A stretch of 64,000 nt of DNA from Escherichia phage naam. How positions within the stretch are numbered: position 1 is the stretch's first letter; every line of letters starts with the position of its first letter. Positions 1,107 to 51,688 of this stretch are shown here, piece by piece. Under the pieces are notes generated by a model that made no database searches, was not told the origin of the DNA, and saw nothing but the letters and a program-made list of their open reading frames with translations. The position numbers and the translations under genes are program-made. The DNA lies in sequence record MN850630.1. The stretch is one strand, 5' to 3'.

Positions 1107-1871
1107 TTGAAATTTATCTACAAAGAACACTACCATAAAGGTGTTGTGTGGAGTCTATTTGACGGGTCTGGTGGTGCAGTCATTGACTGGGCAAAAGCTG
1201 GGTACCTGTGCCTGTGCTTTAATGCAGAAGGCGCTGATCACGGCAGTTATGCAGAGGTGATCACCGATCATCCCAACATTCACTATGTGGACTATTGGAT
1301 TGACCCGTGGTTCCCTCAGGAAACTTTTTGCATGTATCCGGCTCCAGACTTTATTCTTGCATTTCCTCCGTGCACGCATTTAGCGGTATCAGGTGCTGCA
1401 CATTTTAAGAAAAAGCTGGCTAAGGACCCCATGATCCAAATTAATGCTGTAAAGGATGCTCGGGTTGCGGAAGAGCTGGGAGAGATTTACGATTGCCCGT
1501 GGCATGTAGAGAATCCTGTGGGTGTTATGTCCACACTGTGGCGCAAACCTGATTACCGTTTTCACCCTTCGGATTATGGCGGGTATTTACCGGAAGATGA
1601 TGTAAACCCATGGTTTCCTGAATTTATAGCTCCACGTGATGCCTATCCAAAAATAACTTGCGGCTGGATAGGTAATGGATTTATAATCCCAGCCACAAAA
1701 CCTGTCCCGCAAATAGTTGACGCGGTTAGCGGGTATTCCATGCAACACGCCAAGCTGGGTGGAAAGAGTGCAAGAACGAAGATGATTCGAAGCCTCACAC
1801 CACGTGGCTGGGCAAAAGCCGTATTCCTAGCAAACGAGCCTGTAGTAAGGAGCAGAATTAATGGGAAGTAA
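1107..1871 (+). CDS. DNA (cytosine-5)-methyltransferase-like protein
   Basis: Motifs LFDGSGG (motif I), PPCTHLAVSG (PCQ-like, Q to T), HVENPVG (ENV); TTG start 1107 after AGGAGA RBS assumed, longest frame from 1077. Confidence 0.5.
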   Translation: MKFIYKEHYHKGVVWSLFDGSGGAVIDWAKAGYLCLCFNAEGADHGSYAEVITDHPNIHYVDYWIDPWFPQETFCMYPAPDFILAFPPCTHLAVSGAAHFKKKLAKDPMIQINAVKDARVAEELGEIYDCPWHVENPVGVMSTLWRKPDYRFHPSDYGGYLPEDDVNPWFPEFIAPRDAYPKITCGWIGNGFIIPATKPVPQIVDAVSGYSMQHAKLGGKSARTKMIRSLTPRGWAKAVFLANEPVVRSRINGK

Positions 1872-3939
1872 ATTTATGGCATCTGCATACAACCGTTTCG
1901 GTGAGCCAAACCCGAAAGCAACTAAGTATAAAAGTGGGGGAAGTGTGAAACGAGACTATCGTGATGAAAAAGAAGTTGAAACTGTAGAGACTGTTTTAGA
2001 AAATACTAAAATTGTCCCTGTCCCACAACAAAATATCGGTCTGATGGCTGCACAATATTTTGGTGTGCGATCAGCATTGTCACAAGAAGACGGTGTGACA
2101 GTCACTGCAACATATTTCCCATATTACGACCGCTACGGAAATCTGTCCGGTTTCAAAAAGCGTGACTGGACTATTCCTAAAGAACAAAGGGGCCACTTCT
2201 CCGTTGTTGGCATCGTAAAGGCCAACTCCCAGATGTTTGGTCAAAAGCTGTGTGCATCTTCCAACAACCGTAAGCAGATTAACGTTTGTGAGGGAGAAGG
2301 TGATGTTATTGCAGCATGGCAGGCTGCATATCAGATACAAGTAAAAGGGATTCTCACCAACGCTAAAGCCCCGGCAAAGGTGAAGCAGTGGGCTAAAGAG
2401 GTCCAGGACGGGATCGACGCAGTTATCAACGGTGGTGATCTGGCAGGAAAACCCTGCCTGCCTTTTGTTGGAATTAACTGTGGATGTGCAAACGCAGTAG
2501 ATACTTTTGCAAACAATGAGAAGTTTATCCGTAGCTATGGAACAGTTGTGCTGGCAATGGATAACGATGCAGCTAACGAGGTAGAGAAGCAAAAACACGT
2601 CATTAAAGGTGTCGAGGCCACGCACAATATCGCAGCATTTTTGATGGCTGATAACGTTTACCACGTAGAATACCCTGGTGAAGTAAACGACCCTGACGGT
2701 GTAAAAGATATCCGAGACATGCTGAAGGCTAAAAAGCTGGAAGATATTGTCAACATGTTCCGGCATCCTGTTAAATATGTGCCTGATGCTGTGTCGGATT
2801 TAGAAGACTTCTCTATCGAGTCTTTGCGGAAAAAGACTTCCAACGGGGTAGATATCAGCGCAGAGTTCCCAAAACTGCAAAAAATGCTAAAAGGCTTGCA
2901 CAAAGGTACACTCGTAATGCTTACAGGCCCATCAGGTGGCGGTAAAACAACCGTAGCTAAAAAACTGGAACACTGTATTGCAAGATACCTAATGGACCCG
3001 ACATGCCCGAAGGCTGATGACTATGAAGAGGATGATCGTCTATGTATGATCCATCTTGAGGAGGACCCAGAGGAAGCAATTAACTCCTTGTATGCAAACC
3101 AGTTAGGGTTTGATGTTAAAGAGTTTGTTGAAGATCCTAGCCAGTTTTTAACTGATCAAGAACACGCAGAGATTCATCAGTCATGGGCAAAAGCTGGAAA
3201 AATCAAAGTGTTCAAACATTTCGGGTCTATTCCGGTGGATGAGTTGATTACCAAGCTTAAGCAAATGGTTTGCCTGTACCATTGCCGTTATATTGTGCTG
3301 GATCACCTGTCCATGGTAATTTCAGGGCTTAATGTTAAGGATGAGCGAAAAGAACTGGACATGGCTATGACCCAACTGGCTGCGTTTTGTAAGCAGTTTA
3401 ATGTGTTTATCTTGGTGATCGCTCACCTCAAACGTACAGAGATTGTGCCTCCTAAGGACAAGGATGGTAACCCGTTACCTTTCTGGTATCCTGTGCGAAA
3501 AGAGAATTTGCGAGGATCGGCGGGGCTTGAACAGTTGAGTTGGGTAGTCATAGGTGTCGAGGCCGAAGAAATGGTGGATCGTTCTCGTGGGCGTGTCCGT
3601 CTGGTAGGTCTTAAAAACCGTCCAGCAAAAACTTTAGGTATTGCTGACACTTTAGTTATGGACCCGCACACAGGTAAGTTCCATGATGCCAGTAACTGGT
3701 ACTGGGACAAAGAAATGCAAATGTTTACAGACGGAGAAGGTGGGGAGGTTGTTTGGAGACCTCAGGCTATGTTTGAGGATCAGGAGCATGCAGTTGTAGA
3801 AACACCTATGGGCAAGGTTGTGGCTGATAAGGTTGTAACTCCTACTGTTAAGCCTGTTGACACGCAGGAAGACCTCCAGTACGATGATCCGTCCTCTGAC
3901 CATGTTCCTGGTTTTGAGGATGATGAAACACCTTTTTAA
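1861..3939 (+). CDS. fused DNA primase-helicase (TOPRIM + DnaB-like)
   Basis: TOPRIM-like EGEGD and MDNDAANE; Walker A GPSGGGKTT; Walker B IVLDHL; acidic C-terminus EDDETPF. Confidence 0.85.
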   Translation: MGSKFMASAYNRFGEPNPKATKYKSGGSVKRDYRDEKEVETVETVLENTKIVPVPQQNIGLMAAQYFGVRSALSQEDGVTVTATYFPYYDRYGNLSGFKKRDWTIPKEQRGHFSVVGIVKANSQMFGQKLCASSNNRKQINVCEGEGDVIAAWQAAYQIQVKGILTNAKAPAKVKQWAKEVQDGIDAVINGGDLAGKPCLPFVGINCGCANAVDTFANNEKFIRSYGTVVLAMDNDAANEVEKQKHVIKGVEATHNIAAFLMADNVYHVEYPGEVNDPDGVKDIRDMLKAKKLEDIVNMFRHPVKYVPDAVSDLEDFSIESLRKKTSNGVDISAEFPKLQKMLKGLHKGTLVMLTGPSGGGKTTVAKKLEHCIARYLMDPTCPKADDYEEDDRLCMIHLEEDPEEAINSLYANQLGFDVKEFVEDPSQFLTDQEHAEIHQSWAKAGKIKVFKHFGSIPVDELITKLKQMVCLYHCRYIVLDHLSMVISGLNVKDERKELDMAMTQLAAFCKQFNVFILVIAHLKRTEIVPPKDKDGNPLPFWYPVRKENLRGSAGLEQLSWVVIGVEAEEMVDRSRGRVRLVGLKNRPAKTLGIADTLVMDPHTGKFHDASNWYWDKEMQMFTDGEGGEVVWRPQAMFEDQEHAVVETPMGKVVADKVVTPTVKPVDTQEDLQYDDPSSDHVPGFEDDETPF

Positions 3940-3997
3940 TGTTTAACAAAGAGTGGGAGGGGTAGTACAACCGCCTCCCCTTTAAGGAGAACTGTAT

Positions 3998-6775
3998 ATG
4001 AGCATGTGGTCGTTCGATTTTGAGTCATCCGGTTTGCTGGAAGACCCAGATCTTTATTATCACTGCGGCCTGTTTAAAGAGCTGAATAAGAACCGTTTTA
4101 TGCTGTTCCTTCCTCTGAATGACCGCACACACTACTCCGAGGAGGATATAGAGAAGGCCAAGAACTTTATTCTGGCAAAGAAAACTCTTTATAAGGATTT
4201 TGAAGTTCGCATAGCAGATTTTTCGGAGTTGGAAGGTTGGCTTACAGGAAATTCCGACTGGTCACCAACAGCTTTGAACTGCCATAACTGCTACAGTTAT
4301 GACTTTATGCTGATGGAGAGATTATCCGGTATTCATTTTGATATGTTCCGTGATCCTAAATGTATGGGGACTATCAACGACCACCAGGTTAACCTGTTTG
4401 ATACGTTGGCGATGAGCCGAATCTTGTGGCCTGATCGCCCTTTACCAAAAGGTTGTCCGGACTCCGTATTCAACCCGGTTACTAAGAAAATGCAGCCTGT
4501 TGGTCCTCACGGCCTTATGGCATGGGGCTACGCCCTTGGTAACCAGAAAGTTCAAATTGATGACTGGCGCGATCTTCCGTTGTGGAAGTATGTGGATCGT
4601 GTATTCGAGGACGTTATCATCCAGGAGCTACTCTGGAAAGAGCTGGTAGCGGAATCAAAAGGTGTATTCTACGGCAAATCTGACATGCAGAACTTTATGT
4701 ACGATCCTGCCAAAGAGAAGCCGAAAGGGTTCAAGAAGATCACCTGGAAGAACGCATTGCGCCGGGGTATGCTGCAACACTTCCTGATGGAGCTGCAGGC
4801 CCGTCAGGGTGTGTATTTTGACATAGATGGGGCTATTGCTTTACGTGACCGTTGCGATGCTTGGATGAAAGAAATCGCTGATCGTGTTGAACCACAACTA
4901 CCTTTAAAAGAGCTGTCAATGTCTCAGCGGCCCAAGTTCCCTGAAAAGCCGTTTAACCAAGATGGGACAATCTCCAATAATGGTTGGAAATGGTTAAAAG
5001 ATAAGCTTGGCTATCCTGTGGACATGAGTGCTTTAGAGTTCAAGGCCCCGCCTAAGCGAGCATTTACCTCTACAGGAGATGTCAGTAAGATGGGGATAAA
5101 ATGGTGTGAAGAGATGGGCTGCAAAGACCCAGATAAGATGGCTGATTTCTTGAGAGGCTATATTAAGGGCACCTCCACACCACAACCTTTGCCTAAAGAG
5201 CTAATGGATCAGGCAATAAGTGATCTACAGCAGAAGCGAATGCCGGACTGCAAGATACCTATGAAAATCAGCAACCAGGACGACATTAAGCGATACCTGA
5301 TCAGTGCTGGTTGGCTTCCGACAATGTGGAGAACTAAGGATGTAACTAAAGACAGCAAGAAGAAAGCTCTACCTGATGCAGATGTTGATGCACGAGTATA
5401 TGCATATATGGACGAGCTTTTAGAGTCAGAGTATTGTGACCTGATTATCAACTTCTGGAACAAAACTGATGCTAAGTTCCAGACAACCGTGCACAAGTTC
5501 CGAAGCTTTCCTAACTCCGAAAGGATTAAAAAGGAAGTATTCGGGAAAATACGTAGAAAAGCTAGGGCACTTATTACTTCTCCGCAACTGAAAGATACTT
5601 TTGGACACCTATGTCCAAATCTTGAAAAATTGAACGGAGAGATGGCTAAAGATATCGTCTTGTGGTTATCATTGCGAAACCGCAGATCGGTCCTTGATCC
5701 AATCAAGGAGGATAAGGTTGATACTGGTCTTCTTAATCACCCACGTTTGAAGATTGACCATAAGCTTCCTGCTAAAAGCTCTGGATTAACAAACACTTCC
5801 CGACAGAAACACAGTATTTGTGCAAACATGCCTAAACCATCTCCTAAAGTGGTTATGGGTAAAGAGATGCGTAGTCTGTGGGGTGTTCCTCCAGGATACT
5901 TTGAGATCGGTATTGACGGGTCCAACTTAGAGCAGCTTATCGGGGCTTGGGGTGCCTTTGAGTTCGACAACGGCTTGTATTATGATGTTGTAAGTAACGG
6001 AGACGCACACCAAAACAACGCCGAGGCATATACAAAAGTAGCAGGCAGAGAGGTATCTCGTAACGACGGTAAACCTATCACGTATGGGGTTATGTACGGG
6101 GCACAAAAAGACAAAGTTGCAGACATGCTGGATATCTCCCCAGAGTTGGGACAAAGGGTAATTGATGCACTTTGGGATGCCAACCCTGGTCTTAAGGGGC
6201 GTAAAGAAGATCTGGAGAAATTCTGGGAAGCAACGGGTAAGAAGTTTATCTACTCTTTTGATGGTCATGCTATCTGGACCCGATCTAAACACTCTTTACT
6301 TAATGCATACCAACAGAATGGTGGTGCATCGTTGTGTGACTTAGTTGGGATACTCATGCACCACCAAATGGTGAAGCGTGGGTGGTACGATGAAGGTGTT
6401 CGTCGTATTATTTATTACCATGACGAATATCAGCTTCAAGTCCCTGACACACCTAAGTATAAGACTGTGTACACCTTCGACACAATTGAAGAACTGGAAG
6501 CATTTAAGGCAGAGCAGGAGTCCAAACTTCATGTGTTCGACGGTCATAAGTACAAAAAGGCACGCAAGGATGAGGACGGAAACGAAGTGGTTGACAGAGA
6601 CGGAAACACGGTGTACGATCCTATCCTGAACGATGACGGAAAGCTTGAACTTATCTGGAGCCCTGTGGGTGAAATGGTGGTGCATTGCTTCTGGCAAGCT
6701 TCTAAAATGATGGGCGTCCCGTTTCAGATCACAGGTGAATACCTGTGTGGTCGTAATTGGGGTGATTGTCACTAA
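3998..6775 (+). CDS. DNA polymerase, family A, with 3'-5' exonuclease domain
   Basis: 925 aa; exo motif FDFESSG; PolA motif B K..YGVMYGAQ; motif C YYHDEYQL; AAGGAG RBS. Confidence 0.9.
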   Translation: MSMWSFDFESSGLLEDPDLYYHCGLFKELNKNRFMLFLPLNDRTHYSEEDIEKAKNFILAKKTLYKDFEVRIADFSELEGWLTGNSDWSPTALNCHNCYSYDFMLMERLSGIHFDMFRDPKCMGTINDHQVNLFDTLAMSRILWPDRPLPKGCPDSVFNPVTKKMQPVGPHGLMAWGYALGNQKVQIDDWRDLPLWKYVDRVFEDVIIQELLWKELVAESKGVFYGKSDMQNFMYDPAKEKPKGFKKITWKNALRRGMLQHFLMELQARQGVYFDIDGAIALRDRCDAWMKEIADRVEPQLPLKELSMSQRPKFPEKPFNQDGTISNNGWKWLKDKLGYPVDMSALEFKAPPKRAFTSTGDVSKMGIKWCEEMGCKDPDKMADFLRGYIKGTSTPQPLPKELMDQAISDLQQKRMPDCKIPMKISNQDDIKRYLISAGWLPTMWRTKDVTKDSKKKALPDADVDARVYAYMDELLESEYCDLIINFWNKTDAKFQTTVHKFRSFPNSERIKKEVFGKIRRKARALITSPQLKDTFGHLCPNLEKLNGEMAKDIVLWLSLRNRRSVLDPIKEDKVDTGLLNHPRLKIDHKLPAKSSGLTNTSRQKHSICANMPKPSPKVVMGKEMRSLWGVPPGYFEIGIDGSNLEQLIGAWGAFEFDNGLYYDVVSNGDAHQNNAEAYTKVAGREVSRNDGKPITYGVMYGAQKDKVADMLDISPELGQRVIDALWDANPGLKGRKEDLEKFWEATGKKFIYSFDGHAIWTRSKHSLLNAYQQNGGASLCDLVGILMHHQMVKRGWYDEGVRRIIYYHDEYQLQVPDTPKYKTVYTFDTIEELEAFKAEQESKLHVFDGHKYKKARKDEDGNEVVDRDGNTVYDPILNDDGKLELIWSPVGEMVVHCFWQASKMMGVPFQITGEYLCGRNWGDCH

Positions 6776-6824
6776 TGTAAACTATCAACACATGGAAGTG
6801 TTGTTGAGCAAAGAGGAGACTTTT

Positions 6825-7109
6825 ATGGTAGTAGAACCAACAAAAACATTTACATCCATGACTATCCCTGTTATTATGCAGGTGGAGTGTGTTCAGGTAT
6901 CTCAAGTGTGGCCAGGCACTAAAATCCCAACAGGGCCTGATTTCTTTCAGGTTGGGAAAGTGTACAATGTCTGGAAGGCACCAGATTGTCACCCTTTCAT
7001 CAAAGATGACCGTGGAATGCTGTGGTATCTTGGAAATGATTTGACACTGCACCTTGGGAATGCTATTATTGCAGTATTCAGACTTAACAAGAAGGAGACT
7101 GATCAATGA
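6825..7109 (+). CDS. hypothetical protein
   Basis: ATG at 6825 six nt after AGAGGAG; longest frame (6735) overlaps polymerase 3' end. Confidence 0.5.
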   Translation: MVVEPTKTFTSMTIPVIMQVECVQVSQVWPGTKIPTGPDFFQVGKVYNVWKAPDCHPFIKDDRGMLWYLGNDLTLHLGNAIIAVFRLNKKETDQ

Positions 7110-7333
7110 CGACTTTGGTTAAAGCTACCTTTGTAGAAGAAAAGATGACAGACCTGTCATTCTTTAAAGAAGGAAAGACCTACGAGGTTTATTACGATAA
7201 AGCTCGTGCAAACAAGATGATTAAAGACGAGGAAGGGATTGCCTGGTTTATCTCCCATCTGGCAAACGGTGAGTATCATATCTACGGAACCACCCTGCTT
7301 GCCAAGTTTGTAGCTGTTGAAGAGGACCTATGA
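7106..7333 (+). CDS. hypothetical protein
   Basis: 75-aa ORF, AAGGAG RBS, ATGA overlap with upstream gene. Confidence 0.55.
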   Translation: MTTLVKATFVEEKMTDLSFFKEGKTYEVYYDKARANKMIKDEEGIAWFISHLANGEYHIYGTTLLAKFVAVEEDL

Positions 7334-7524
7334 AAGTAAAGTATCTGGCTGAGGGTATGAGTAGGTATTTCACCCTTGGTGAAGAATATTGGCCCTTTAC
7401 AAGCAACGGCGATGTCTACGTGAAAGATAATTTCGGCACGCCGTGGTTTCTGCACCCTAATGGGCTGGGATACTCCATTTACTGCGGTGCAGTGAACAAC
7501 ACAACACTTGCAGAGTTTGTATAG
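7330..7524 (+). CDS. hypothetical protein
   Basis: 64-aa ORF, start overlaps upstream stop; weak RBS. Confidence 0.45.
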   Translation: MKVKYLAEGMSRYFTLGEEYWPFTSNGDVYVKDNFGTPWFLHPNGLGYSIYCGAVNNTTLAEFV

Positions 7525-7534
7525 AGGAGGTAGA

Positions 7535-7906
7535 ATGTTAGTAAAAGGTACCCACACAGTCAAACAACGTATTGAAGTTGAGATTGATGACTGCGAGCTG
7601 AAGCATATTTTACGGTCATGCTCCAACGTTTTGCTCCTTAGCATTCTTCAGGAGCGAGCAGAGAACGAGTTCTTAAATGCACTGGCAGGCCGTCCTGGTG
7701 ACTTCTGTGTGCGTAAGCGTGGTGACAACAAGTCATGGCTGTGGGAGATAGACGCAGAATGGGATTACCACAAAAATGAGGGTATAGATGAGCCTATTCG
7801 TGAATTGACAGACAAAGAGGTTCAGATGTACAATGAAGTTTGTCATTGGGCAACACGCCAACAAATTTACCTCGACCCCGTGTGGCTGATTGAAAATAGT
7901 CATTGA
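7535..7906 (+). CDS. hypothetical protein
   Basis: ATG 7535 after GAGGAGG RBS, in frame with track ORF 7508. Confidence 0.5.
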   Translation: MLVKGTHTVKQRIEVEIDDCELKHILRSCSNVLLLSILQERAENEFLNALAGRPGDFCVRKRGDNKSWLWEIDAEWDYHKNEGIDEPIRELTDKEVQMYNEVCHWATRQQIYLDPVWLIENSH

Positions 7907-7930
7907 CAAGAAGTAAGATTAGATATAAGA
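7903..7930 (+). promoter_or_regulatory. sigma70-type promoter (TTGACA / TATAAG)
   Basis: TTGACA then about 16 nt then TATAAG, upstream of 7983 gene. Confidence 0.5.
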
Positions 7931-7982
7931 TGCTTCACACAAACAGAGCGTTGATTTTTAAATAACTAAGGAGACTGCTAAG

Positions 7983-8237
7983 ATGAAAATTACTTTGAAG
8001 TCAGAATGCGTTGCAAATGACCGAGCTTTTAAAGATTGCACAGTCGGTGCAATTTATGAAGCAGAGTTTTGTGAGAACCCTCTGGTAAAAGCCCTCCTGG
8101 AAGAAGGGGCCCCTTTATCACAAGAAGAGATCGATGAGCTGGAAAACTCAGCACAGTGCCTTACCTTTAAAGATGATGAAGGAGACTCTGTCTGGTGCAC
8201 TGTTAATGAAGTAGTTTTTGTAAAACCTGAACATTAA
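7983..8237 (+). CDS. hypothetical protein, tandem paralog 1 (AF(K/R)DCT family)
   Basis: 84 aa; AAGGAG RBS; shares DRAFKDCT and GDSVWCT motifs with 8301..8561. Confidence 0.55.
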   Translation: MKITLKSECVANDRAFKDCTVGAIYEAEFCENPLVKALLEEGAPLSQEEIDELENSAQCLTFKDDEGDSVWCTVNEVVFVKPEH

Positions 8238-8240
8238 TAC

Positions 8241-8269
8241 TTGACAACAGTGATGGGGCCTAATATAAT
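8241..8269 (+). promoter_or_regulatory. sigma70 consensus promoter (TTGACA-17-TATAAT)
   Basis: TTGACAacagtgatggggcctaaTATAAT directly read. Confidence 0.65.
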
Positions 8270-8300
8270 GGCCCTATCAAAACGAAAGGGGACCACAGCA

Positions 8301-8561
8301 ATGACCAAACAATATCAACGAATTAAAGCCAAGGTTAAGCCAGACTATCTGGAGAAAGACTCTGCTTTTCGGGACTGCACAGCCGACAAAGTTTACACAG
8401 GGGCTGTCCTGTTGAACGATAAGCTTGAAGTAGATGTGCTGGGTAAAGAGGCCGTTATCGAGGATGACAACGGTGACTGTGTTTTCTGCACCACACGGGA
8501 GCTAGAAGTCTTAGAATACTTCGGTGAAATCTTCAACTCCTTAGACGACGAGGAAGCGTGA
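8301..8561 (+). CDS. hypothetical protein, tandem paralog 2 (AF(K/R)DCT family)
   Basis: ATG 8301 after AAAGGGG RBS and downstream of promoter; DSAFRDCT and GDCVFCT motifs. Confidence 0.55.
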   Translation: MTKQYQRIKAKVKPDYLEKDSAFRDCTADKVYTGAVLLNDKLEVDVLGKEAVIEDDNGDCVFCTTRELEVLEYFGEIFNSLDDEEA

Positions 8562-8950
8562 TGAAAAATATTTGGGATATTGATATCTTTGAAGCCTCTA
8601 AGCTTGACGGTGCTGATGGAGTTATTATGGTGTCTGATGGCAAGGCAACACTAACTTCCGGAGATATCATCTATGCCTTGGACGAGCTGGCGCTTCTGAA
8701 ATCTACCGGTAACACTTTAGAGGAGCGTCTTCAAGGCTTCGCCTTCAAAGAAGGCACAAATACCGCCATGATGTGCACCACACGGACAGTTCAGGTTGGT
8801 AACGGTGTCTATATGATCATTGCTGTGTGTCCTAAATTCAGCAACGTCAACAAAGATGATGCTGACGCTGTCAACGATGTGGTTGTTCTCTTCGTGGGTG
8901 ACGCTATGGCAGACCTGATGAATGCAGGAGAAGCGGCAAATGAAGACTGA
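8558..8950 (+). CDS. hypothetical protein
   Basis: 130 aa, GAGGAAG RBS, ATGA overlap. Confidence 0.5.
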   Translation: MMKNIWDIDIFEASKLDGADGVIMVSDGKATLTSGDIIYALDELALLKSTGNTLEERLQGFAFKEGTNTAMMCTTRTVQVGNGVYMIIAVCPKFSNVNKDDADAVNDVVVLFVGDAMADLMNAGEAANED

Positions 8951-9242
8951 AAACATTACCCCAGCAGGGTTCTTAAAAGTATACCGTGAACTGCTATATA
9001 CTACAGAGGACAGTGTTCTAGAGTATCCAGAATATCTTTTGCTGTATAAGTATCTACAGGAAGCTGGTGAAAATCTGCCAGTTAGTGCAGAAGGCGGTCC
9101 GAACTGGGTATACAGCGCATGGAGAAAGGTTGACATTCTCCCAGATCCAGGTAAAGATATGGTAGTTTGGCAGCTTATCAACAACATCGGGATTCCAATC
9201 TTTGATGAAGCTGTTAAAATCTATTTTGAACTTGACGATTAA
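8940..9242 (+). CDS. hypothetical protein
   Basis: ATG 8940 after AGGAGAAG RBS, in frame with track ORF 8922. Confidence 0.5.
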   Translation: MKTENITPAGFLKVYRELLYTTEDSVLEYPEYLLLYKYLQEAGENLPVSAEGGPNWVYSAWRKVDILPDPGKDMVVWQLINNIGIPIFDEAVKIYFELDD

Positions 9243-9259
9243 TATCAGGAGACCTTAAG

Positions 9260-9505
9260 ATGACTGAAGTAGTTGCTCGCGCAGGACAGAAAGTACGTTG
9301 TGTTGAAGTAGGTTTTGGTGGCAAAGGGTGTCAAAACTTGACTCAAGGTAAGGAATACGCTGTTATTTCTGGTGGTGGCGACGAAAGTATTGTGTTCGAG
9401 GGCCACATCCTGGATGCTGAAAACTTTGAAATCTTTGACGACGATGGGGATCCGATCACCTGCCTGCTGGACGGGAATTGGGGAACTTTTGAAGTGATTG
9501 GCTAA
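9260..9505 (+). CDS. hypothetical protein
   Basis: 81 aa, CAGGAGA RBS. Confidence 0.55.
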   Translation: MTEVVARAGQKVRCVEVGFGGKGCQNLTQGKEYAVISGGGDESIVFEGHILDAENFEIFDDDGDPITCLLDGNWGTFEVIG

Positions 9506-9588
9506 CAAATATCTATTGTAATTTACAGAAGGGGATGCTAAAATAGTGTCTCCTTCTATGTTGTTCAAATAAAATCGGAGATTCCATA

Positions 9589-9954
9589 ATGGAACAAATG
9601 AACGATCAAGCGTCGGTTGCGATGAACGAGCAAGAACAACCTCAAGAATTTTTCTTAGGGTTAAGTAAAGATCAAGTGTCTCTTCTGCTAGTGCTTTCTT
9701 CTTTCATGGGAAGACTTCAGGAGCTTACACAACAGCCAGAGGCTGAACAATTATTCCAGGCTCTGCGTGAAGAAGAAAAATATCGTCGTTTGGACTATGC
9801 CTTAGGTTGGGTAGCTCAACAACGGGATATGCTGATGGCCCTCTCTGGGACCACAAGTTTTGCAATGGGCCTGCTGGCTCAAGTTCAGGACAAATTAATT
9901 CAAGCAGGGTTTGCACACACGGCAAACACTAACGAAGAACAAGGAGACAAATAA
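9589..9954 (+). CDS. hypothetical protein
   Basis: 121 aa, coiled-coil-like, GGAGA RBS. Confidence 0.5.
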   Translation: MEQMNDQASVAMNEQEQPQEFFLGLSKDQVSLLLVLSSFMGRLQELTQQPEAEQLFQALREEEKYRRLDYALGWVAQQRDMLMALSGTTSFAMGLLAQVQDKLIQAGFAHTANTNEEQGDK

Positions 9955-11180
9955 TGAGCGTTATCCAACAATTCGCTAACCCGATGAATCCGCGTGAAAC
10001 TGTTTTACTGGCTCACGGCATGATTAAACGTGTCAGCATCAAGCCTATCAAAGGTGCTGATCCTACAACAGGTATTAAAACCACTGTGTGGCAAGGTAAG
10101 AAAATTGAATCCAGCCACACCATCTCTTTACTGATTTCTGAACTGGATTCCTCTGATAACCTGCTTCAAGGTGGTGAAGAAGTCTGGATCAGCATGGGTG
10201 ATAAACTGCTTAAACCGGGTCATCAAGACTCTGTCTCTGTTAAGATTGATGACAAGTGGGAAACCGTAACGCCAGGATGGATCGTAAATATCCCTTTGAA
10301 GGCAAACGAGCATAACGGTAAGACCTATTACAAAGGCTCACTGGCTAAGATGGTTAAGCTGGGTGCAGGAGAGGCTCCAGCAGCGGCTCAGCAGCAAAAA
10401 CAGCAACAAGGTGCACAATCACAAGGCCAGAAGCAGAAACCTCAGCAGAATGCCAATCAGGACGTTTTACGCATCTATGGTGATGTGACTCAGATTGTTG
10501 GCAACGTGGTTACTGTTAATGACCACAAGATTGGCGAAGGTGCTATGGTTGTCACTGATGAGCAGCTTAAAGACCTGGTGGTAGGTGGTCGTGTTGCAGC
10601 CATTGTTGACAAAGACACCGGAAACATTATCAGTGGTTTCAAGGCCTATCCTCCTAAGGCAGAGAACGGCACTCAAGGCTCTGGTGGCAAGCGTAAATCC
10701 TCTTACGACCCTATCGGTGTGGAGACGGGACATAGCATCAATGCGTTGCAGATCATCCTGGATCGCGGGTTTAAGGTGGACGACCCACTAGGCGTGGCTA
10801 AAACACTGCACGTAGTCACCATTGAGCTTAAGAAAGAGTATGCTCAAGCCACCAACCGAACTGAAGATGAAGTAGGTGCCAGTGTCGGCAATGCGGTGTT
10901 GAACGCTTGTCGCCGTATTGACAAGAAAACGAAAGTTGATGATTTTGCAGCGGCAATTACTGCAGAAGCAAAAGATGTCTTGACTAATCTGGCTGAGCCG
11001 TTGTACGATTGGATCAAGAACGGTGCTGGGTCCACTGACCATCAAGAACCTCAAGCTGCCAAACAGGAAGCAGCTCCACAGCAAAACACTGTAGACGCTC
11101 CTCCTGTAAATGACGAGGAAGATGACCCGATGGATCAGAATCCAGCACAGTACGCCTTTGATGATGACATCCCATTCTAA
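9954..11180 (+). CDS. single-stranded DNA-binding protein-like (acidic C-terminal tail DDDIPF)
   Basis: C-terminus ends DDDIPF as in bacterial SSB; Q-rich linker; AAGGAGA RBS; replication neighbourhood. Confidence 0.5.
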   Translation: MSVIQQFANPMNPRETVLLAHGMIKRVSIKPIKGADPTTGIKTTVWQGKKIESSHTISLLISELDSSDNLLQGGEEVWISMGDKLLKPGHQDSVSVKIDDKWETVTPGWIVNIPLKANEHNGKTYYKGSLAKMVKLGAGEAPAAAQQQKQQQGAQSQGQKQKPQQNANQDVLRIYGDVTQIVGNVVTVNDHKIGEGAMVVTDEQLKDLVVGGRVAAIVDKDTGNIISGFKAYPPKAENGTQGSGGKRKSSYDPIGVETGHSINALQIILDRGFKVDDPLGVAKTLHVVTIELKKEYAQATNRTEDEVGASVGNAVLNACRRIDKKTKVDDFAAAITAEAKDVLTNLAEPLYDWIKNGAGSTDHQEPQAAKQEAAPQQNTVDAPPVNDEEDDPMDQNPAQYAFDDDIPF

Positions 11181-11196
11181 CATCTAGTTAACATAG

Positions 11197-11225
11197 CCCT
11201 GCCCGAAAGGGTGGGGCATTTTTGT
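11197..11225 (+). terminator. rho-independent terminator (same cassette as 1061)
   Basis: GCCCTGCCC-GAAA-GGGTGGGGC + ATTTTT after SSB-like gene. Confidence 0.6.
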
Positions 11226-11242
11226 ATAAGGAGATCTGAAAA

Positions 11243-48245: not shown

Positions 48246-49334
48246 TTAAAACTCCCAAATTTCTTCTTCAGCGTCGTTAACAGTTGTGTTGACGCGGTAG
48301 TCAGTGTTCGACATTTCTTGGTTCGCCGTCTGTTGTAATGAAGGTTTCATCCACACCTGCATAAACGGTAGCGGGTCCTTTGTTGGCGGCACAAAGTCTT
48401 TGTCGATGTCGTAGTAATCATAAATCGGTGAGCAGTTATAGTCAACCCACTCTTTAAGCAACGGTGAGTTAAGACCTATAATCGCTCTTCCTTCGCTGAA
48501 AATATAGTCACTCCAACCGTACTCTTTGGTTCGTACTTCATCAAGAATCTCTTTTAACTCCCCTTTTATCTCCAGGAAGCTTTTCTCCCATGCGGGATCG
48601 TTAAGCAAGATATCAATGATGGCAAAATCACCTTTCGAATGTAGCATTTCGTCAAGCATGATTTTTTGAACAAGCTGCGCCACCTGAACAAAAATACCCT
48701 GTTCAGCTACTGCGAAAGTGCATGCAAAACTTGCAATAAACTCAATACTTTCTAGAGCTAAAAGTGCAAAAAGCGCTCTAAGAATGCATTTCCGCACAAT
48801 ATCTTCTTCAACACTAGAAGGATCCAGGCGGTATTTTGCACCAATAACCTCAAGCTCTTGCATGTATTTGACAATAACGCCGGATCTGCTCAGAACGTTT
48901 TGGTTTTCCTGAATCTCTTCTATAATCTCACGGGCATTGGGGAGGCATTGTCTAACAATCTCTGAGTAAGTTAGTGCGTGAAGAACTTCAATCTCTGACT
49001 GTTTCATCAATAGAGTGAAAAGCTCACTATTAGTGATGAATGGTGAAAAGAGGCAGATGATCGATCTTGCCGCAACGCTATCAGCCTCCCATTGCCACAT
49101 CAAGGTCTGCACCATCACGTCATAAGTTGACTTTGAGCATGTTACAAAATCTGAAATAGATTGCGACAAATCCACTTCATCCTCTGTCCAATCTTGCTCT
49201 TTTTGTTTTTTGTATAGTTCAAACAGTTGTGGATATTTTTTGTTGATAGAGTCGTACATACCCATTTGCTGTCCCAGAAACAACGGATAGTCACCAGTTT
49301 TATGAGCGGTGTTCTCAGCATTAAATACAGCCAT
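48246..49334 (-). CDS. nrdB: ribonucleotide reductase small subunit
   Basis: About 360 aa downstream of nrdA; ATG 49334 after GAGGT (longest frame overlaps nrdA). Confidence 0.75.
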   Translation of the reverse strand: MAVFNAENTAHKTGDYPLFLGQQMGMYDSINKKYPQLFELYKKQKEQDWTEDEVDLSQSISDFVTCSKSTYDVMVQTLMWQWEADSVAARSIICLFSPFITNSELFTLLMKQSEIEVLHALTYSEIVRQCLPNAREIIEEIQENQNVLSRSGVIVKYMQELEVIGAKYRLDPSSVEEDIVRKCILRALFALLALESIEFIASFACTFAVAEQGIFVQVAQLVQKIMLDEMLHSKGDFAIIDILLNDPAWEKSFLEIKGELKEILDEVRTKEYGWSDYIFSEGRAIIGLNSPLLKEWVDYNCSPIYDYYDIDKDFVPPTKDPLPFMQVWMKPSLQQTANQEMSNTDYRVNTTVNDAEEEIWEF

Positions 49335-49372
49335 TATTCTACCTCTAAAATGGGGCCGAAGCCCCTTTAAAA

Positions 49373-51688
49373 TTATAGTGCACAGCTTTCGCAATACGGA
49401 TCTTCAACTGAACTATCTGCAATCAAAGGATAGTTCTTTCTGGTTTCATCTTCAGCCTGTTTCTTGGCATGAAGTTCCTCTGCCAAGGAGTCACCAGCAC
49501 CAACCCTGGAGTTTAAATAATACCATGTCTTCATCCCGAATTTAGTGGCACGGATAAGGTACCCTAGCTGCTCCTTCATTGAAATTTTACCATCTTTCAA
49601 CTTGGTGTAGTCTATGTATAAATCCGCGCTGATTGCCTGACCTGTGAATTTTTGAATCACAGCATACATATCGATCATGTCGTTAGTATCAACGTCCCAA
49701 GCCGAGGTGTAATACTCTTTCAACTCATCATAGTCAGGAACGATAAACAGCACCTGCCCTTGTGGCGACTTTTTAAAGATAATGTGCTCACGGACAGGAT
49801 AAACCCCGTTAGTGGTGTTTGTTGCCAGCGAAGAGCTTTCATTAGGCATATATGCTTCAAGAACGCTATTACGTAGCCCACCATTTTCAATGATTTCTTT
49901 ACGTAACCCTTCCCAATCCTGTTTAAGAGAAGGATCTTTCACCACGCTATCGACCTCTTTGTTATAGGTGTCGATTGGTAACCAACCTTCTGGATATTTT
50001 GTTTTATGCATCCACTCGCAGACACCACGCTCTTTTGCCAACCGTAAACTTGCCTTATGCAAGCTGTAGCTGTGAAGTTCTGCAAGATCGTGAACGAGCT
50101 GTTTACTCTCAGGAGATCCGTAAGTAACCTTGTGGCTGGCAATAAAATGTGCAACATTGGTAAGGCCAACCCCGATGGATCTGCGTTTTTTAACTGTGCT
50201 TTCCATATTTTCATACGGATATGTCATGATTTCCATAACATTGTCAATCATAAGCACCGTATAGTATGCAACATCCTCATACTCTTCTGGAGTAACCCTT
50301 CCGGCTACAAGAGATGACAGGAAGCACAATGCAACCTCTCCATCATCAGCATCGTACTTGAAGATATTACGCATATCTGAATAGCCTTTTGTCGGGAGGG
50401 CTATTTCTGCACACAGGTTACTTGAATAGATCACATCTTTAAAAGGTGTATGTCTATTCATCTCATCTGTCCAGTATACATACAGCCTTCCCACCTCAGT
50501 ACGCTGCGTGATCAGCTCAACAGCAAGATCTCTAGCTCGGATCCATGTTTTAGGAATACTGTCATCTTTAGCGATACGATCAACCTCTGCATCAAACTCC
50601 TCCATAGACATGGTGAAGATACCCTCATGTAGTTGAGGCGCGTGCTTATAAGAAACAAGCATCCAATCTAAATTCTTAGCCACACGGTTGATAAACGACC
50701 TATTAATACCGATGGAGTAGTCCATGGTGTTGATTCTTTTTGAAGCAACAGTCATAGGGTTTCTCAAACGGATTAGCTCATCAATCTGCGGGTCTAGTGC
50801 AAGGAATGATACTGTTGCAGAACCGCCACGTGATTGTTGTCTGTTCTCCTTAACCCCAGCATCAATACCTCGATAATATGGAATCTTACCCATGTGTTTA
50901 ATAGTGTTACCACGAACACCATCACCTGCAGATCTTGATGATAAATAGTAGCCGATACCCGCTTGGTTAACCGTCATTGTGTACGCAACTTCACGTGCCA
51001 CACCAATAGATTTTGCTGTATCGTCAGCTTTTATTACACAACAAGATGCATACCCTGTCTTACCTGTGCGCAGCCCGTTTAAGTACGGTGTCGGGGCATT
51101 GATCTTTAAGTCGGACAGATAAGTGTATAATTTTACAACATCGTTGATACGACGTTCTTTCGGCATATTCTTCATGACAGCCATTGCTATCCCCATAAAC
51201 ATCATCTGGGGAGATTCAAACAGGGTGTCTTTAAGAGTATCCTTGATCCCGTATTTGTCGCGAAACTGTTTAAGGACTGCATAGCCATAACCGAGATCTT
51301 TACTGTGGTCAATAACAGCGTCTAAAGTGTTTAGCTCGGTAAAGCTATAGCCCATATTCTCCCAATACCCTTTCTCAACCATGGTATTGTAAAATGATGG
51401 TAAGGAAGGGATCTTTGTAAACCCTCCAAAAGCCTCTTTATAAATCTGACCAATAAGAACACGACCAGCCATACGGGAATGTGCTTCGTCTTTACGGCTA
51501 ACACAGGAGTCTATGATAGCTTGGTTAACTTCTTTGGTTGTACATCCATCATACAGTCGTTTGTATGCATCCAGTGCAATGTGTGACCAATTGCCGTTAC
51601 CGTCGTCACCGAAAATAGCTGCCTTATTTAAACGTTCTGGATCGAATGCCACTTCACATCCGTTGCTTTTAATTACCTTGGTGATCAA
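49373..51688 (-). CDS. nrdA: ribonucleotide reductase large subunit, class Ia
   Basis: SNLCAEIALPT active-site motif, C-terminal CESCAL; 771 aa; TTG start after GGAGG. Confidence 0.9.
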   Translation of the reverse strand: MITKVIKSNGCEVAFDPERLNKAAIFGDDGNGNWSHIALDAYKRLYDGCTTKEVNQAIIDSCVSRKDEAHSRMAGRVLIGQIYKEAFGGFTKIPSLPSFYNTMVEKGYWENMGYSFTELNTLDAVIDHSKDLGYGYAVLKQFRDKYGIKDTLKDTLFESPQMMFMGIAMAVMKNMPKERRINDVVKLYTYLSDLKINAPTPYLNGLRTGKTGYASCCVIKADDTAKSIGVAREVAYTMTVNQAGIGYYLSSRSAGDGVRGNTIKHMGKIPYYRGIDAGVKENRQQSRGGSATVSFLALDPQIDELIRLRNPMTVASKRINTMDYSIGINRSFINRVAKNLDWMLVSYKHAPQLHEGIFTMSMEEFDAEVDRIAKDDSIPKTWIRARDLAVELITQRTEVGRLYVYWTDEMNRHTPFKDVIYSSNLCAEIALPTKGYSDMRNIFKYDADDGEVALCFLSSLVAGRVTPEEYEDVAYYTVLMIDNVMEIMTYPYENMESTVKKRRSIGVGLTNVAHFIASHKVTYGSPESKQLVHDLAELHSYSLHKASLRLAKERGVCEWMHKTKYPEGWLPIDTYNKEVDSVVKDPSLKQDWEGLRKEIIENGGLRNSVLEAYMPNESSSLATNTTNGVYPVREHIIFKKSPQGQVLFIVPDYDELKEYYTSAWDVDTNDMIDMYAVIQKFTGQAISADLYIDYTKLKDGKISMKEQLGYLIRATKFGMKTWYYLNSRVGAGDSLAEELHAKKQAEDETRKNYPLIADSSVEDPYCESCAL

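Follow-up and report, generated by a model that had tools for sequence, protein, structure and literature searches.

Acidic Phe-terminated tails on the primase-helicase and an SSB-like protein in the replication module of an rV5-like Escherichia coli phage

In phage T7, the C-terminal tail of the helicase-primase gp4 docks onto the T7 polymerase. The tail of the T7 protein gp2.5 and its terminal Phe bind this polymerase as well (bioRxiv 10.64898/2026.02.22.705581). The locus described here raises the question of whether two acidic, Phe-terminated tails in another phage, one on a primase-helicase and one on an SSB-like protein, reflect the same replisome design. It lies in a stretch of 64,000 nucleotides of Escherichia phage naam (MN850630.1), referred to as the window, which was analyzed as a whole. 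The region belongs to an rV5-like Vequintavirus and is 98% identical to rV5-like phages; the window holds the replication module of this E. coli phage.

A T7-like helicase and polymerase

The core of the module consists of the following features:

1861..3939, plus strand: gp4-like primase-helicase, 692 aa, TOPRIM plus DnaB/gp4-type helicase, without N-terminal zinc-binding domain
3775..3936, plus strand: flexible C-terminal tail of the primase-helicase, residues 639-692, pLDDT < 50, with the acidic tip FEDDETPF at 3913-3936
3998..6775, plus strand: DNA polymerase of family A, T7 gp5-like, 925 aa; it has a 3'-5' exonuclease region and large insertions in the thumb region, and it ends ...NWGDCH

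Judged by sequence similarity, the helicase-primase is a true homologue of T7 gp4 (BLASTP, 25% identity over 522 aa, residues 88-605, E 2e-21). Its TOPRIM primase domain is fused to a DnaB/gp4-type hexameric helicase domain, with Pfam matches to DnaB_C and AAA_25 and a match to PHROG 239 (primase/helicase) at 7e-160. The AF2 model is confident for the core (residues 38-638), and residues 1-37 are predicted to be disordered. The N-terminal Cys4 zinc-binding domain of gp4-type proteins is needed for primer-site recognition; no Cys was found in residues 1-100 of the window's protein, compared with four in gp4.

On the same kind of evidence, the polymerase is classed as T7 gp5-like family A, with BLASTP matches to gp5 in the palm and fingers (E 2e-19) and in the exonuclease region (5e-5), a PHROG DNA polymerase match at 1e-142 and a Pfam DNA_pol_A score of 31.7, just under the cut-off of 34.3. 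The C-terminal NWGDCH aligns with NWAICH of gp5, and the ...W..CH ending is kept in related loci. The protein is 220 residues longer than its T7 counterpart. Additional sequence separates its exonuclease and palm domains and includes a basic segment (residues 501-525, net charge +7) without significant similarity to the thioredoxin-binding domain of T7 (E 18). As the original prediction had stated, this polymerase lies between the two tailed genes (1861-3939 and 9954-11180), and loci with no more than 20-30% identity retain the order of helicase, T7-like PolA and SSB-like protein. Further differences from T7 are the genome size of 137 kb and the phage's own nucleotide-metabolism genes. Ligase, RNase H and exonucleases are also encoded by the phage.

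Occurrence and conservation of the acidic tails

Both tails were found as the original prediction had described them, with regards to the ORFs as well as their ends, and they are predicted to be disordered and are conserved in distant homologues. The primase-helicase ends ...HVPGFEDDETPF, and the 408-aa SSB-like ORF (9954-11180) ends ...NPAQYAFDDDIPF, followed by TAA. Each tail has a terminal Phe and a net charge of -7 over the last 20 residues, and pLDDT values stay below 50 for residues 359-408 of the SSB-like protein. The window contains 348 ORFs of 50 aa or longer, and an acidic stretch together with a PF end occurs only in these two. Across 21 related viral loci, PF ends were present in 22 of 1,380 ORFs, and all of the acidic ones (19/19) are orthologues of either the helicase or the SSB-like protein. 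Chance alone does not account for these tails.

Each of the 58 full-length homologues of the SSB-like protein ends in [DE]x[DE][DES][IV]PF, and 107 of 146 more distant representatives still end in [IVLTS]PF. Conservation across an alignment of 115 members peaks in the final 8 residues, at 3.20 bits per position, while the helical domain reaches 1.69 and the N-terminal OB domain 1.38. The logo of the family tip reads D-[F/D]-D-D-D-[I/L/V]-P-F, with P in 110 and F in 111 of the 115 members. For the primase-helicase, an acidic run with an x-P-F end was seen in nearly all homologues among the 120 matches listed, down to approximately 43% identity. However, these tips carry Thr, Ser or Glu at the position where the SSB tips have Ile, Leu or Val, so the two tails may not share a receptor. 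One further acidic Phe-terminated ORF of the window (48246-49394, minus strand) is NrdB, and its tail is unrelated.

The SSB-like protein and its family

The gene of the SSB-like protein and its surroundings are laid out as follows:

9589..9954, plus strand: orf121, a small helical acidic protein, with a TAATG overlap with the SSB-like gene and GGAG 8 nt upstream
9954..10373, plus strand: N-terminal all-beta domain, residues 1-140, predicted OB fold and candidate ssDNA-binding domain
10374..10457, plus strand: Gln-rich disordered linker, residues 141-168, pLDDT < 50, length varying across the alignment
10461..10658, plus strand: small beta-barrel middle domain, residues 170-235, OB/IF1-like, AF2 strands at 171-232
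10701..11027, plus strand: four-helix bundle, residues 250-358, AF2 helices 253-355, pLDDT approximately 90
11028..11153, plus strand: acidic Pro- and Gln-rich disordered linker, residues 359-400, pLDDT approximately 35, low conservation
11154..11177, plus strand: C-terminal tip ...YAFDDDIPF, residues 401-408, matching the bacterial SSB-Ct motif
about 11196..11227, plus strand: intrinsic terminator after the SSB-like gene, from a terminator scan

The overlap indicates that orf121 is translationally coupled to the SSB-like gene. It matches PHROG 7310, a family of unknown function. In loci L006-L015 and L018, each long-form SSB-like gene has a homologue of orf121 as its direct upstream neighbour.

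The original prediction had suggested a T7-like replisome and had proposed profile searches against SSB and gp2.5 families as well as a structure prediction. Both were carried out. The searches gave no family match for 9954..11180: the 408-aa protein has no Pfam or NCBIfam match, and none of the 115 family members (0/115) matches PF00436, Pfam SSB or the gp2.5 family (DUF2815 / PF10991). At the sequence level, the protein is not gp2.5-like, as BLASTP against T7 gp2.5 gave only E 1.1 and the tip is not T7-like. The protein belongs to an uncatalogued family with 260 cluster representatives in long and short forms, and nearly all records list its gene as 'hypothetical'.

The structure prediction gave an OB fold, a small OB-like barrel, a four-helix bundle, a disordered linker and the tip. 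SSB is the best structural match of the predicted OB-fold domain. Foldseek aligned the middle barrel to IF1, RPA and proteasome OB domains over 65-70 columns with probabilities of 0.97-1.0, but at E values of only approximately 0.1, and this barrel is absent from the short-form members (P0056-P0059 and most representatives). The tightly packed four-helix bundle, with the motifs G-x3-G-H-A-x-N and G-A-x-x-G-x-A-V, is the best-conserved folded domain and probably serves for oligomerization, judging from the model. In an SSB, one would not usually expect such a bundle to exceed the OB fold in conservation, as it does in the 115-member alignment, and this may hint at a different activity.

A tip of the host type

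E. coli SSB (1EQQ/4MZ9) ends ...SNEPPMDFDDDIPF, which is matched by the tip of the SSB-like protein, and some family members match 13 of the last 14 E. coli SSB residues. The T7 ends differ (gp2.5 ...EADEDGDF, gp4 ...DWSNDTDF). From its sequence, the tip is therefore of the bacterial SSB C-terminal type and not of the T7 type. When the family profile was compared with PDB SSB sequences, the match was confined to the tail (E 0.028). The tip-coding DNA shows no similarity to E. coli ssb, indicating that selection acts on the peptide itself. DDDIPF is known as the SSB-Ct interaction hub for host partner proteins (PMC5872125, PMC5928155).

The comparison with bacterial SSB (PF00436) extends to the overall layout, as both share an OB fold, a disordered linker and an acidic tip with the same terminal sequence, and in the 408-aa protein this linker likewise ends in a D-D-D-[IL]-P-F tip at the free C-terminus. 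However, the sequences are not similar beyond the tail, and only the 408-aa protein has the extra OB-like barrel and the conserved four-helix bundle. Tips like that of the host are also found on classical SSBs encoded by phages such as HK620, where the C-terminal hexapeptide mediates a protein-protein interaction needed for function; in HK620, the last six residues NDYPPF recruit the phage annealase Sak4 (PMC5928155). Those proteins are PF00436-type OB-fold tetramers, whereas the 408-aa protein represents a different family.

The description of the locus as a "T7-style replisome" was thus only half right. The gp4 homologue, the gp5-like polymerase and the acidic, disordered, Phe-terminated tails stood up, but the SSB-like protein comes from an uncatalogued family without gp2.5 similarity, and its tip copies the docking peptide of the host SSB. 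Moreover, the DFDDDIPF tip is kept in distant phages whose helicases end ...EGSY, ...GAY or ...SNY, without PF, so paired tails are no general signature of this replisome type.

Relation to Bas52_0087

An April 2026 preprint (bioRxiv 10.64898/2026.04.29.721553), in its passages on this protein, has already called it SSB-like with a host-type C-tip. The orthologue described there, Bas52_0087 (QXV84166.1, Escherichia phage RudolfGeigy), is a protein of a different isolate, occupies the same genomic position and is identical to the window's protein at 405 of 408 residues. According to these passages, Phold/AlphaFold2 predicted an 'SSB-like' protein that has two OB folds and whose disordered C-terminus carries an FDDDIPF motif resembling the C-tip of E. 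coli SSB. Triggering of the DRT10 defence system requires Bas52_0087; the system is modulated by host ExoI, which is a known SSB-Ct binder, and expression of the protein alone neither harmed cells nor triggered DRT10. The reported escape mutations are D252V and Y351C; D252 and Y351 are both present in the window's protein, where they sit in the predicted four-helix bundle. The same passages contain no ssDNA-binding or tip-binding biochemistry and no discussion of the -PF tail of the primase-helicase, the family-wide distribution, or capped or endonuclease-linked variants.

Capped relatives

Such capped variants are frequent. In an estimated quarter of the rV5-like records, the ORF runs 15 residues past the Phe, which buries the terminal residue. 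Comparing the junction with DrSchubert and two further loci (L007 and L010) showed that relatives carry the 15-aa extension and an endonuclease gene at the point where, in the window, the Phe codon (11175-11177) adjoins the stop codon (11178-11180); the extension is often linked to such a mobile endonuclease gene. As extended forms include isolated and propagated phages, e.g., DrSchubert, the free tip is not essential for viability, which speaks against a strict requirement for a free Phe.

Possible roles of the two tails

On balance, we consider it probable that a T7-type core of gp4-like helicase-primase and gp5-like polymerase operates here with an SSB-like protein from a different, uncatalogued family that bears a host-type tip. 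The 408-aa protein, as modelled, would coat ssDNA at the phage fork, and by analogy with bacterial SSBs its exposed tip would plug partner pockets with the terminal Phe and the free carboxylate. Since this tip reproduces the peptide of the host itself, exonuclease I and other SSB-interacting proteins of the host would be the likeliest partners; components of the phage replisome in which the same pocket type has evolved may bind it too. The 54-residue flexible acidic tail of the helicase-primase appears homologous in position to the polymerase-docking tail of gp4. In the rV5 clade it shares the -PF dipeptide, which suggests that one class of docking site can serve both tails.

A strict T7 model, in which both tails dock onto basic patches of the phage's own polymerase and hold the replisome together, with the likeness to the host tip being incidental or convergent, seems unlikely. 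It would agree with helicase and polymerase being gp4 and gp5 homologues, with two acidic, flexible, -PF-ended tails within one phage, and with polymerase insertions in the thumb region, where T7 has its thioredoxin-binding domain, including the +7 segment. The phage's own ligase, RNase H and exonucleases would also leave little need for host replication factors. However, polymerase docking does not require a match to the host peptide over 8-14 residues, which in many members includes the non-acidic ...EPPMDF context, and the real T7 tails end in -DF. Furthermore, distant phages combine the same polymerase type and the SSB-like tip with helicases lacking PF tails, classical phage SSBs bear the same tip whatever their polymerase, and the basic segment has no significant similarity to the T7 domain.

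Less probable still is that replication is not the main task of the 408-aa protein and that it acts as a decoy or anti-host factor, the host tip at high copy titrating or redirecting ExoI, RecQ, PriA, UDG and others, and thereby protecting phage DNA ends or disabling host repair and defence. The copied tip as the most conserved element, the helical bundle conserved above the OB fold, the 'hypothetical' labels and the genetic link to the ExoI-modulated DRT10 system in the passages of the preprint would fit such a role. Against it stand the conserved gene order with helicase and polymerase, the predicted OB folds with SSB as best structural match and the full linker-plus-tip layout typical of working SSBs. 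In addition, no second SSB candidate is annotated in 114 of the 137 kb of the most liberally annotated relative, and the naturally capped variants would defeat a tip-dependent decoy.

A mainly intramolecular role, with the tails folding onto their own DNA-binding surfaces and regulating ssDNA affinity and cooperativity without a dedicated external partner, is improbable: the acidic tails of E. coli SSB, T4 gp32 and T7 gp2.5 are established to compete with ssDNA for the OB surface (discussed in PMC5928155), both tails here are strongly negative and the capped variants are viable, but electrostatic self-inhibition does not explain the near-invariant Pro-Phe and the preceding hydrophobic residue, which are hallmarks of pocket docking.

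Replication region and gene context

The 408-aa SSB-like protein is a predicted SSB of novel architecture that carries a bacterial-type tip within a T7-like module, an outcome partly anticipated by a 2026 preprint. The three ORFs named in the original prediction (primase-helicase, polymerase and SSB-like protein) were found in the sequence exactly as claimed, and the window comes from an rV5-like Vequintavirus: the 9.3-kb region has 98% identity with the Escherichia phages ECO111 5-P, DrSchubert and JeffSchatz and with about 120 other records. The matches listed for the region also hold 16 'Campylobacter phage' records, with Campylobacter jejuni as the host in 15; the Campylobacter phage record C12 (MG065635.1), among the matches listed, has 97.8% identity. 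These records are probably wrongly labelled or stem from contaminant assemblies.

Features of the replication region (orf121 is the 121-aa ORF directly ahead of the SSB-like gene)
1861–3939, plus strand: primase-helicase, 692 aa, C-terminal end ...HVPGFEDDETPF
3998–6775, plus strand: family A polymerase, 925 aa
9589–9954, plus strand: orf121, 121 aa, PHROG 7310 (function not assigned there)
9954–11180, plus strand: SSB-like protein, 408 aa, end ...NPAQYAFDDDIPF, then TAA
11196–11217, plus strand: strong intrinsic terminator, 3′ of the 408-aa ORF

The order of helicase, T7-like polymerase and SSB-like protein is retained in loci at only 20–30% identity. Within the window, orf121 and the 408-aa ORF overlap in TAATG and are thereby translationally coupled; GGAG lies 8 nt upstream. 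An orf121 homologue lies immediately 5′ of every long-form SSB-like gene in the related loci, but not of the short-form genes, whose products have no middle barrel. Searches of orf121 against PADLOC, NCBIfam and Pfam gave no match; one GenBank record labels it 'putative SSB', on no visible grounds. Within 114 of the 137 kb of the rV5-like genome with the most liberal annotation, SSB labels fall on the SSB-like gene and orf121 only, and this phage also has a ligase, an RNase H, exonucleases and a further helicase of its own. Nothing specific on rV5 replication proteins was found in the literature.

T7-like primase-helicase and polymerase

With regard to the helicase and the polymerase, the proposed T7-like replisome is supported: both are of the gp4/gp5 type. 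The primase-helicase is a true homologue of gp4, with which it shares 25% identity across 522 residues (E 2e-21) that span the TOPRIM and helicase domains. Its AlphaFold2 model, built with 33 homologues, has a confident core at residues 38–638, while residues 1–37 are predicted to be disordered and the C-terminal 54 residues (639–692), which bear the tip, are of low confidence. T7 gp4 has four cysteines in its first 100 residues, whereas the window protein has none, and the N-terminal zinc-binding domain of T7 gp4 is absent here, which puts priming-site recognition by this protein in question (1861–2160). Many homologues are about 975–1,025 aa long, compared with about 690 aa (P0065–P0067, P0106–P0154). 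A Dcm-like cytosine methyltransferase gene (1077–1871) overlaps the primase-helicase start by 11 nt, so the two genes probably form one operon with joint translation.

The polymerase matches T7 gp5 in the palm and fingers (E 2e-19), its exonuclease regions are also gp5-like, and it shares with gp5 a C-terminal ...NW..CH that recurs in all related loci. It carries about 220 extra residues, in part at the position of the T7 thioredoxin-binding domain and including a segment of charge +7 (residues 501–525); the similarity of this extra sequence to that domain is not significant. Polymerase genes of relatives come in other forms: split, assembled from two pieces, or with about 330 additional residues (L001:5138–8244, L004:2638–5691, L015:3296–7057). 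Together with the longer primase-helicase homologues, these forms suggest inteins, introns or endonuclease insertions in their replication genes. The window copies of both genes are uninterrupted.

Family and predicted fold of the SSB-like protein

The third component departs from T7. The SSB-like protein shows no sequence similarity to gp2.5 (E 1.1), and its tip is of host type. No match to the 408-aa protein was found in Pfam, NCBIfam or PADLOC, and none of 115 family members matched the SSB families of Pfam. It is a member of PHROG 4477, where no function is assigned. Against PDB sequences, the family profile found only the tail of E. coli SSB, along with faint cold-shock-domain signals. 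The T5 SSB D11 was rejected as a studied relative: the family profile does not match it, and its tail ends ...SDLDD.

The AlphaFold2 model has a mean pLDDT of 74.6, with 80–94 in the domains.

Predicted segments of the 408-aa protein (AlphaFold2)
Residues 1–140: all-beta domain
Following the all-beta domain: Gln-rich disordered linker
Residues 170–235: small beta barrel
Residues 250–358 (10701–11027): four-helix bundle
C-terminal end, 50 residues: disordered acidic tail

Foldseek returned nothing significant from the PDB; the weak matches there are OB folds, among them the SSB of lactococcal phage p2 and the gp2.5-like DUF2815, and the significant BFVD matches are uncharacterised family members only. 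Because of the predicted segments, the weak OB matches and the null family searches, an OB fold class and an SSB-like layout are supported at the level of the model, whereas membership in a known SSB family is not.

The family consists mostly of short forms of about 260–300 aa that have no middle barrel. They occur in phAPEC8-, phi92- and ESCO5-like phages and are labelled as SSB in a few records; as these are myophages and not N4-like phages, an N4-type SSB was set aside as a candidate relative of the short form. Among the folded domains, conservation is highest in the four-helix bundle and not in the OB fold: G259, G308 and G312 are near-invariant, and D252, H260 and N263 are conserved at 72–81% (D252 at 81%). 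Such motifs of small residues point to tightly packed helices or to oligomerisation, and another activity of the bundle is possible.

Acidic Phe-terminated tips

The paired acidic, Phe-terminated tails of the original prediction are confirmed and are more than chance. The window holds 348 ORFs of 50 aa or more, and of these only the primase-helicase and the 408-aa protein combine an acidic run with a PF end. A PF end occurs in 22 of the 1,380 ORFs of 21 related viral loci, and all 19 acidic cases are orthologues of these two proteins. For the 408-aa protein, each of the 58 full-length homologues carries the tip motif [DE]x[DE][DES][IV]PF. Further afield, an exhaustive profile search yielded 260 clusters at E ≤ 0.001; of 146 more distant representatives taken from it, 107 have an exact [IVLTS]PF end, the remainder being mostly fragments or one-residue variants. 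In the 115-member alignment, the last eight residues reach the highest conservation (3.20 bits per position, compared with 1.69 in the helical domain and 1.38 in the N-terminal domain) and give the logo D-[F/D]-D-D-D-[I/L/V]-P-F. Among the primase-helicase homologues listed, 120 in number and reaching as low as about 43% identity, nearly all likewise end in an acidic run and x-P-F (for example DLDSDSPF, DFDNDTPF, DFDDDTPF and EDDEPF). NrdB (48246–49394, minus strand, ...DAEEEIWEF) was discarded as a third such tail: it is the small subunit of ribonucleotide reductase (Ribonuc_red_sm in Pfam, 1.8e-30), and its end is the classical NrdA-docking peptide, an unrelated look-alike of replisome tails.

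The two tails are, however, T7-style only in part. T7 gp2.5 ends ...EADEDGDF and gp4 ...DWSNDTDF, whereas the 408-aa protein ends AFDDDIPF; E. coli SSB (1EQQ/4MZ9) ends ...SNEPPMDFDDDIPF, so that the tip is of the host type. Many relatives end ...EPPMDFDDDIPF, and in one homologue (P0056) 13 of 14 of the last residues of the host SSB are identical. DDDIPF is the well-studied hub peptide of the SSB C-terminal tip (SSB-Ct; PMC5872125, PMC5928155). Recent capture of the 3′ end of host ssb was ruled out, as a comparison of the tip-coding DNA with 5,426 E. coli genomes gave no significant match to ssb; the conserved entity is therefore the peptide and not recently captured DNA. If T7 were followed strictly, both tails would dock on the polymerase of the phage. 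This model fits the acidic, Phe-terminated ends on both proteins, but the SSB-like tip is that of the host SSB and not of T7; this less well supported alternative we consider unlikely.

As a general replisome signature, the paired tails did not hold up: distant helicases end ...EGSY, ...GAY, ...SNY or ...MKF, while the SSB-like tip in loci at 20–30% identity is still DFDDD[IV]PF. Since distant loci keep only the latter, the helicase -PF tail is restricted to the rV5 clade and phages close to it, and the SSB-like tip is universal. Position −2 also separates the tips systematically: helicases have Thr, Ser, Glu or Cys there, and SSB tips have Ile, Leu or Val. Independent lineages with both tails are few among the loci compared for tip co-variation.

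Link to DRT10 and proposed mechanism

The orthologue Bas52_0087 (QXV84166.1) of phage RudolfGeigy, identical to the window protein at 405 of 408 positions and at the same locus, is a subject of the preprint (bioRxiv 10.64898/2026.04.29.721553, 30 April 2026). Its available part describes a Phold/AlphaFold2 'SSB-like' call with two OB folds and a disordered C-terminus, and likens the FDDDIPF motif to the E. coli SSB C-tip; neither the SSB-like nature nor the host-type tip is therefore a new finding. It further reports that Bas52_0087 is required for triggering of the defence system DRT10, that DRT10 is modulated by host ExoI, an SSB-Ct binder, and that D252V and Y351C are escape mutations. Both of these positions lie inside the four-helix bundle. 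In the same part, no biochemistry on ssDNA binding or tip binding was found, nor were the helicase -PF tail, the family survey or the capped variants.

Taken together, a gp4/gp5-type module, a flexible acidic -PF helicase tail, a predicted OB-fold SSB layout and a strongly selected host-identical tip are seen or predicted. We lean slightly towards a mechanism in which the 408-aa protein would act as the replicative SSB of the phage, its tip would dock on host proteins with SSB-Ct pockets, ExoI for example, and possibly on phage proteins as well, and the helicase tail would serve gp4-like tethering and may share the docking site. A decoy role of the 408-aa protein appears improbable, and a mainly intramolecular role of the tails even more so. 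If the docking mechanism is true, the rV5-, phi92- and phAPEC8-like coliphages, which are numerous and widespread, pair a T7-type polymerase and helicase with a new SSB architecture that uses the docking language of the host. It would connect replisome assembly in big virulent phages with the tapping or perturbing of host DNA repair and with infection sensing by DRT10 and other defence systems, and would define a protein family that is 'hypothetical' in most genomes.

Capped tips and the endonuclease gene

In DrSchubert, the SSB-like ORF runs on past ...IPF with APVGLQYGKSRIHAL. Such a cap, 15 residues with the consensus AP[IV][GT]L[QP][YF]xxxx[IL][HY]x[ILM], follows ...DDD[IT]PF in three unrelated protein families, including classical OB-fold SSBs of lambdoid and Vibrio phages and gp4-like primase-helicases.

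Cap carriers and endonuclease gene (locus:coordinates; L003 and the like are related viral loci)
L032:1075–1581: SSB of mEp235, capped
L027:577–1125: SSB of Vibrio V039C, capped
L028:518–2581: primase-helicase of a Klebsiella phage, capped
L035–L077: further loci with cap
L003:2544–3167 (DrSchubert), L007:11233–11811, L010:11232–11843: endonuclease gene, 190–207 aa, Cys-rich
Window 11175–11180: endonuclease insertion point, endonuclease-free junction ...GATGATGACATCCCATTCTAA

Of about 124 rV5-like records, 52 have the endonuclease gene, placed right after the SSB-like gene; the window lacks it. The gene is annotated as 'homing endonuclease' or 'endonuclease VII' and has no match in Pfam. The junction takes two forms, a 15-aa extension of the SSB-like ORF (about 60% of the 52, from sampled rows) or a stop kept right after IPF. 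Among the Vequintavirinae of the BASEL collection, DrSchubert, EmilHeitz and MaxBurger have capped tips, HeinrichReichert and WalterGehring carry the endonuclease but keep the stop, and RudolfGeigy (Bas52) and JeffSchatz combine a free tip with absence of the endonuclease. In DrSchubert, the gene for a 207-aa putative homing endonuclease overlaps the extension, and substitutions are concentrated just upstream, a cluster that resembles a homing co-conversion tract. The view that the cap is no more than the 5′ arm of a cassette whose homing endonuclease targets DNA coding for DDDIPF is nevertheless weakened: of 43 viral contigs with the cap, only 4 have an endonuclease homologue downstream, and the SSBs of lambdoid and Vibrio phages carry the cap with the endonuclease absent. 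As 25 of the 43 are classical SSBs and only these 4 have the endonuclease, the cap is mainly a widespread C-terminal module of phage SSBs, and endonuclease-linked spread is plausible for rV5-like and Klebsiella phages alone. No description of the module was found in the literature.

The cap would bury the terminal Phe. Bacterial SSB tips require a free terminal carboxylate, and the capped phages are viable, which argues against a strict need for a free tip. We give little credence to a broader scheme in which host-type -PF tips (carried by the SSB-like protein and, among phages of the rV5 clade, by the helicase too) and the cap would regulate access to the host SSB interactome, the cap being toggled in rV5-like phages by the mobile endonuclease gene and thereby switching host partners and tip-dependent defences such as DRT10. 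The natural capped and uncapped tips represent ready test strains.

Beyond the replication genes, the GC skew of the window turns from positive to negative near 28–30 kb, which coincides with the switch from plus- to minus-strand genes.
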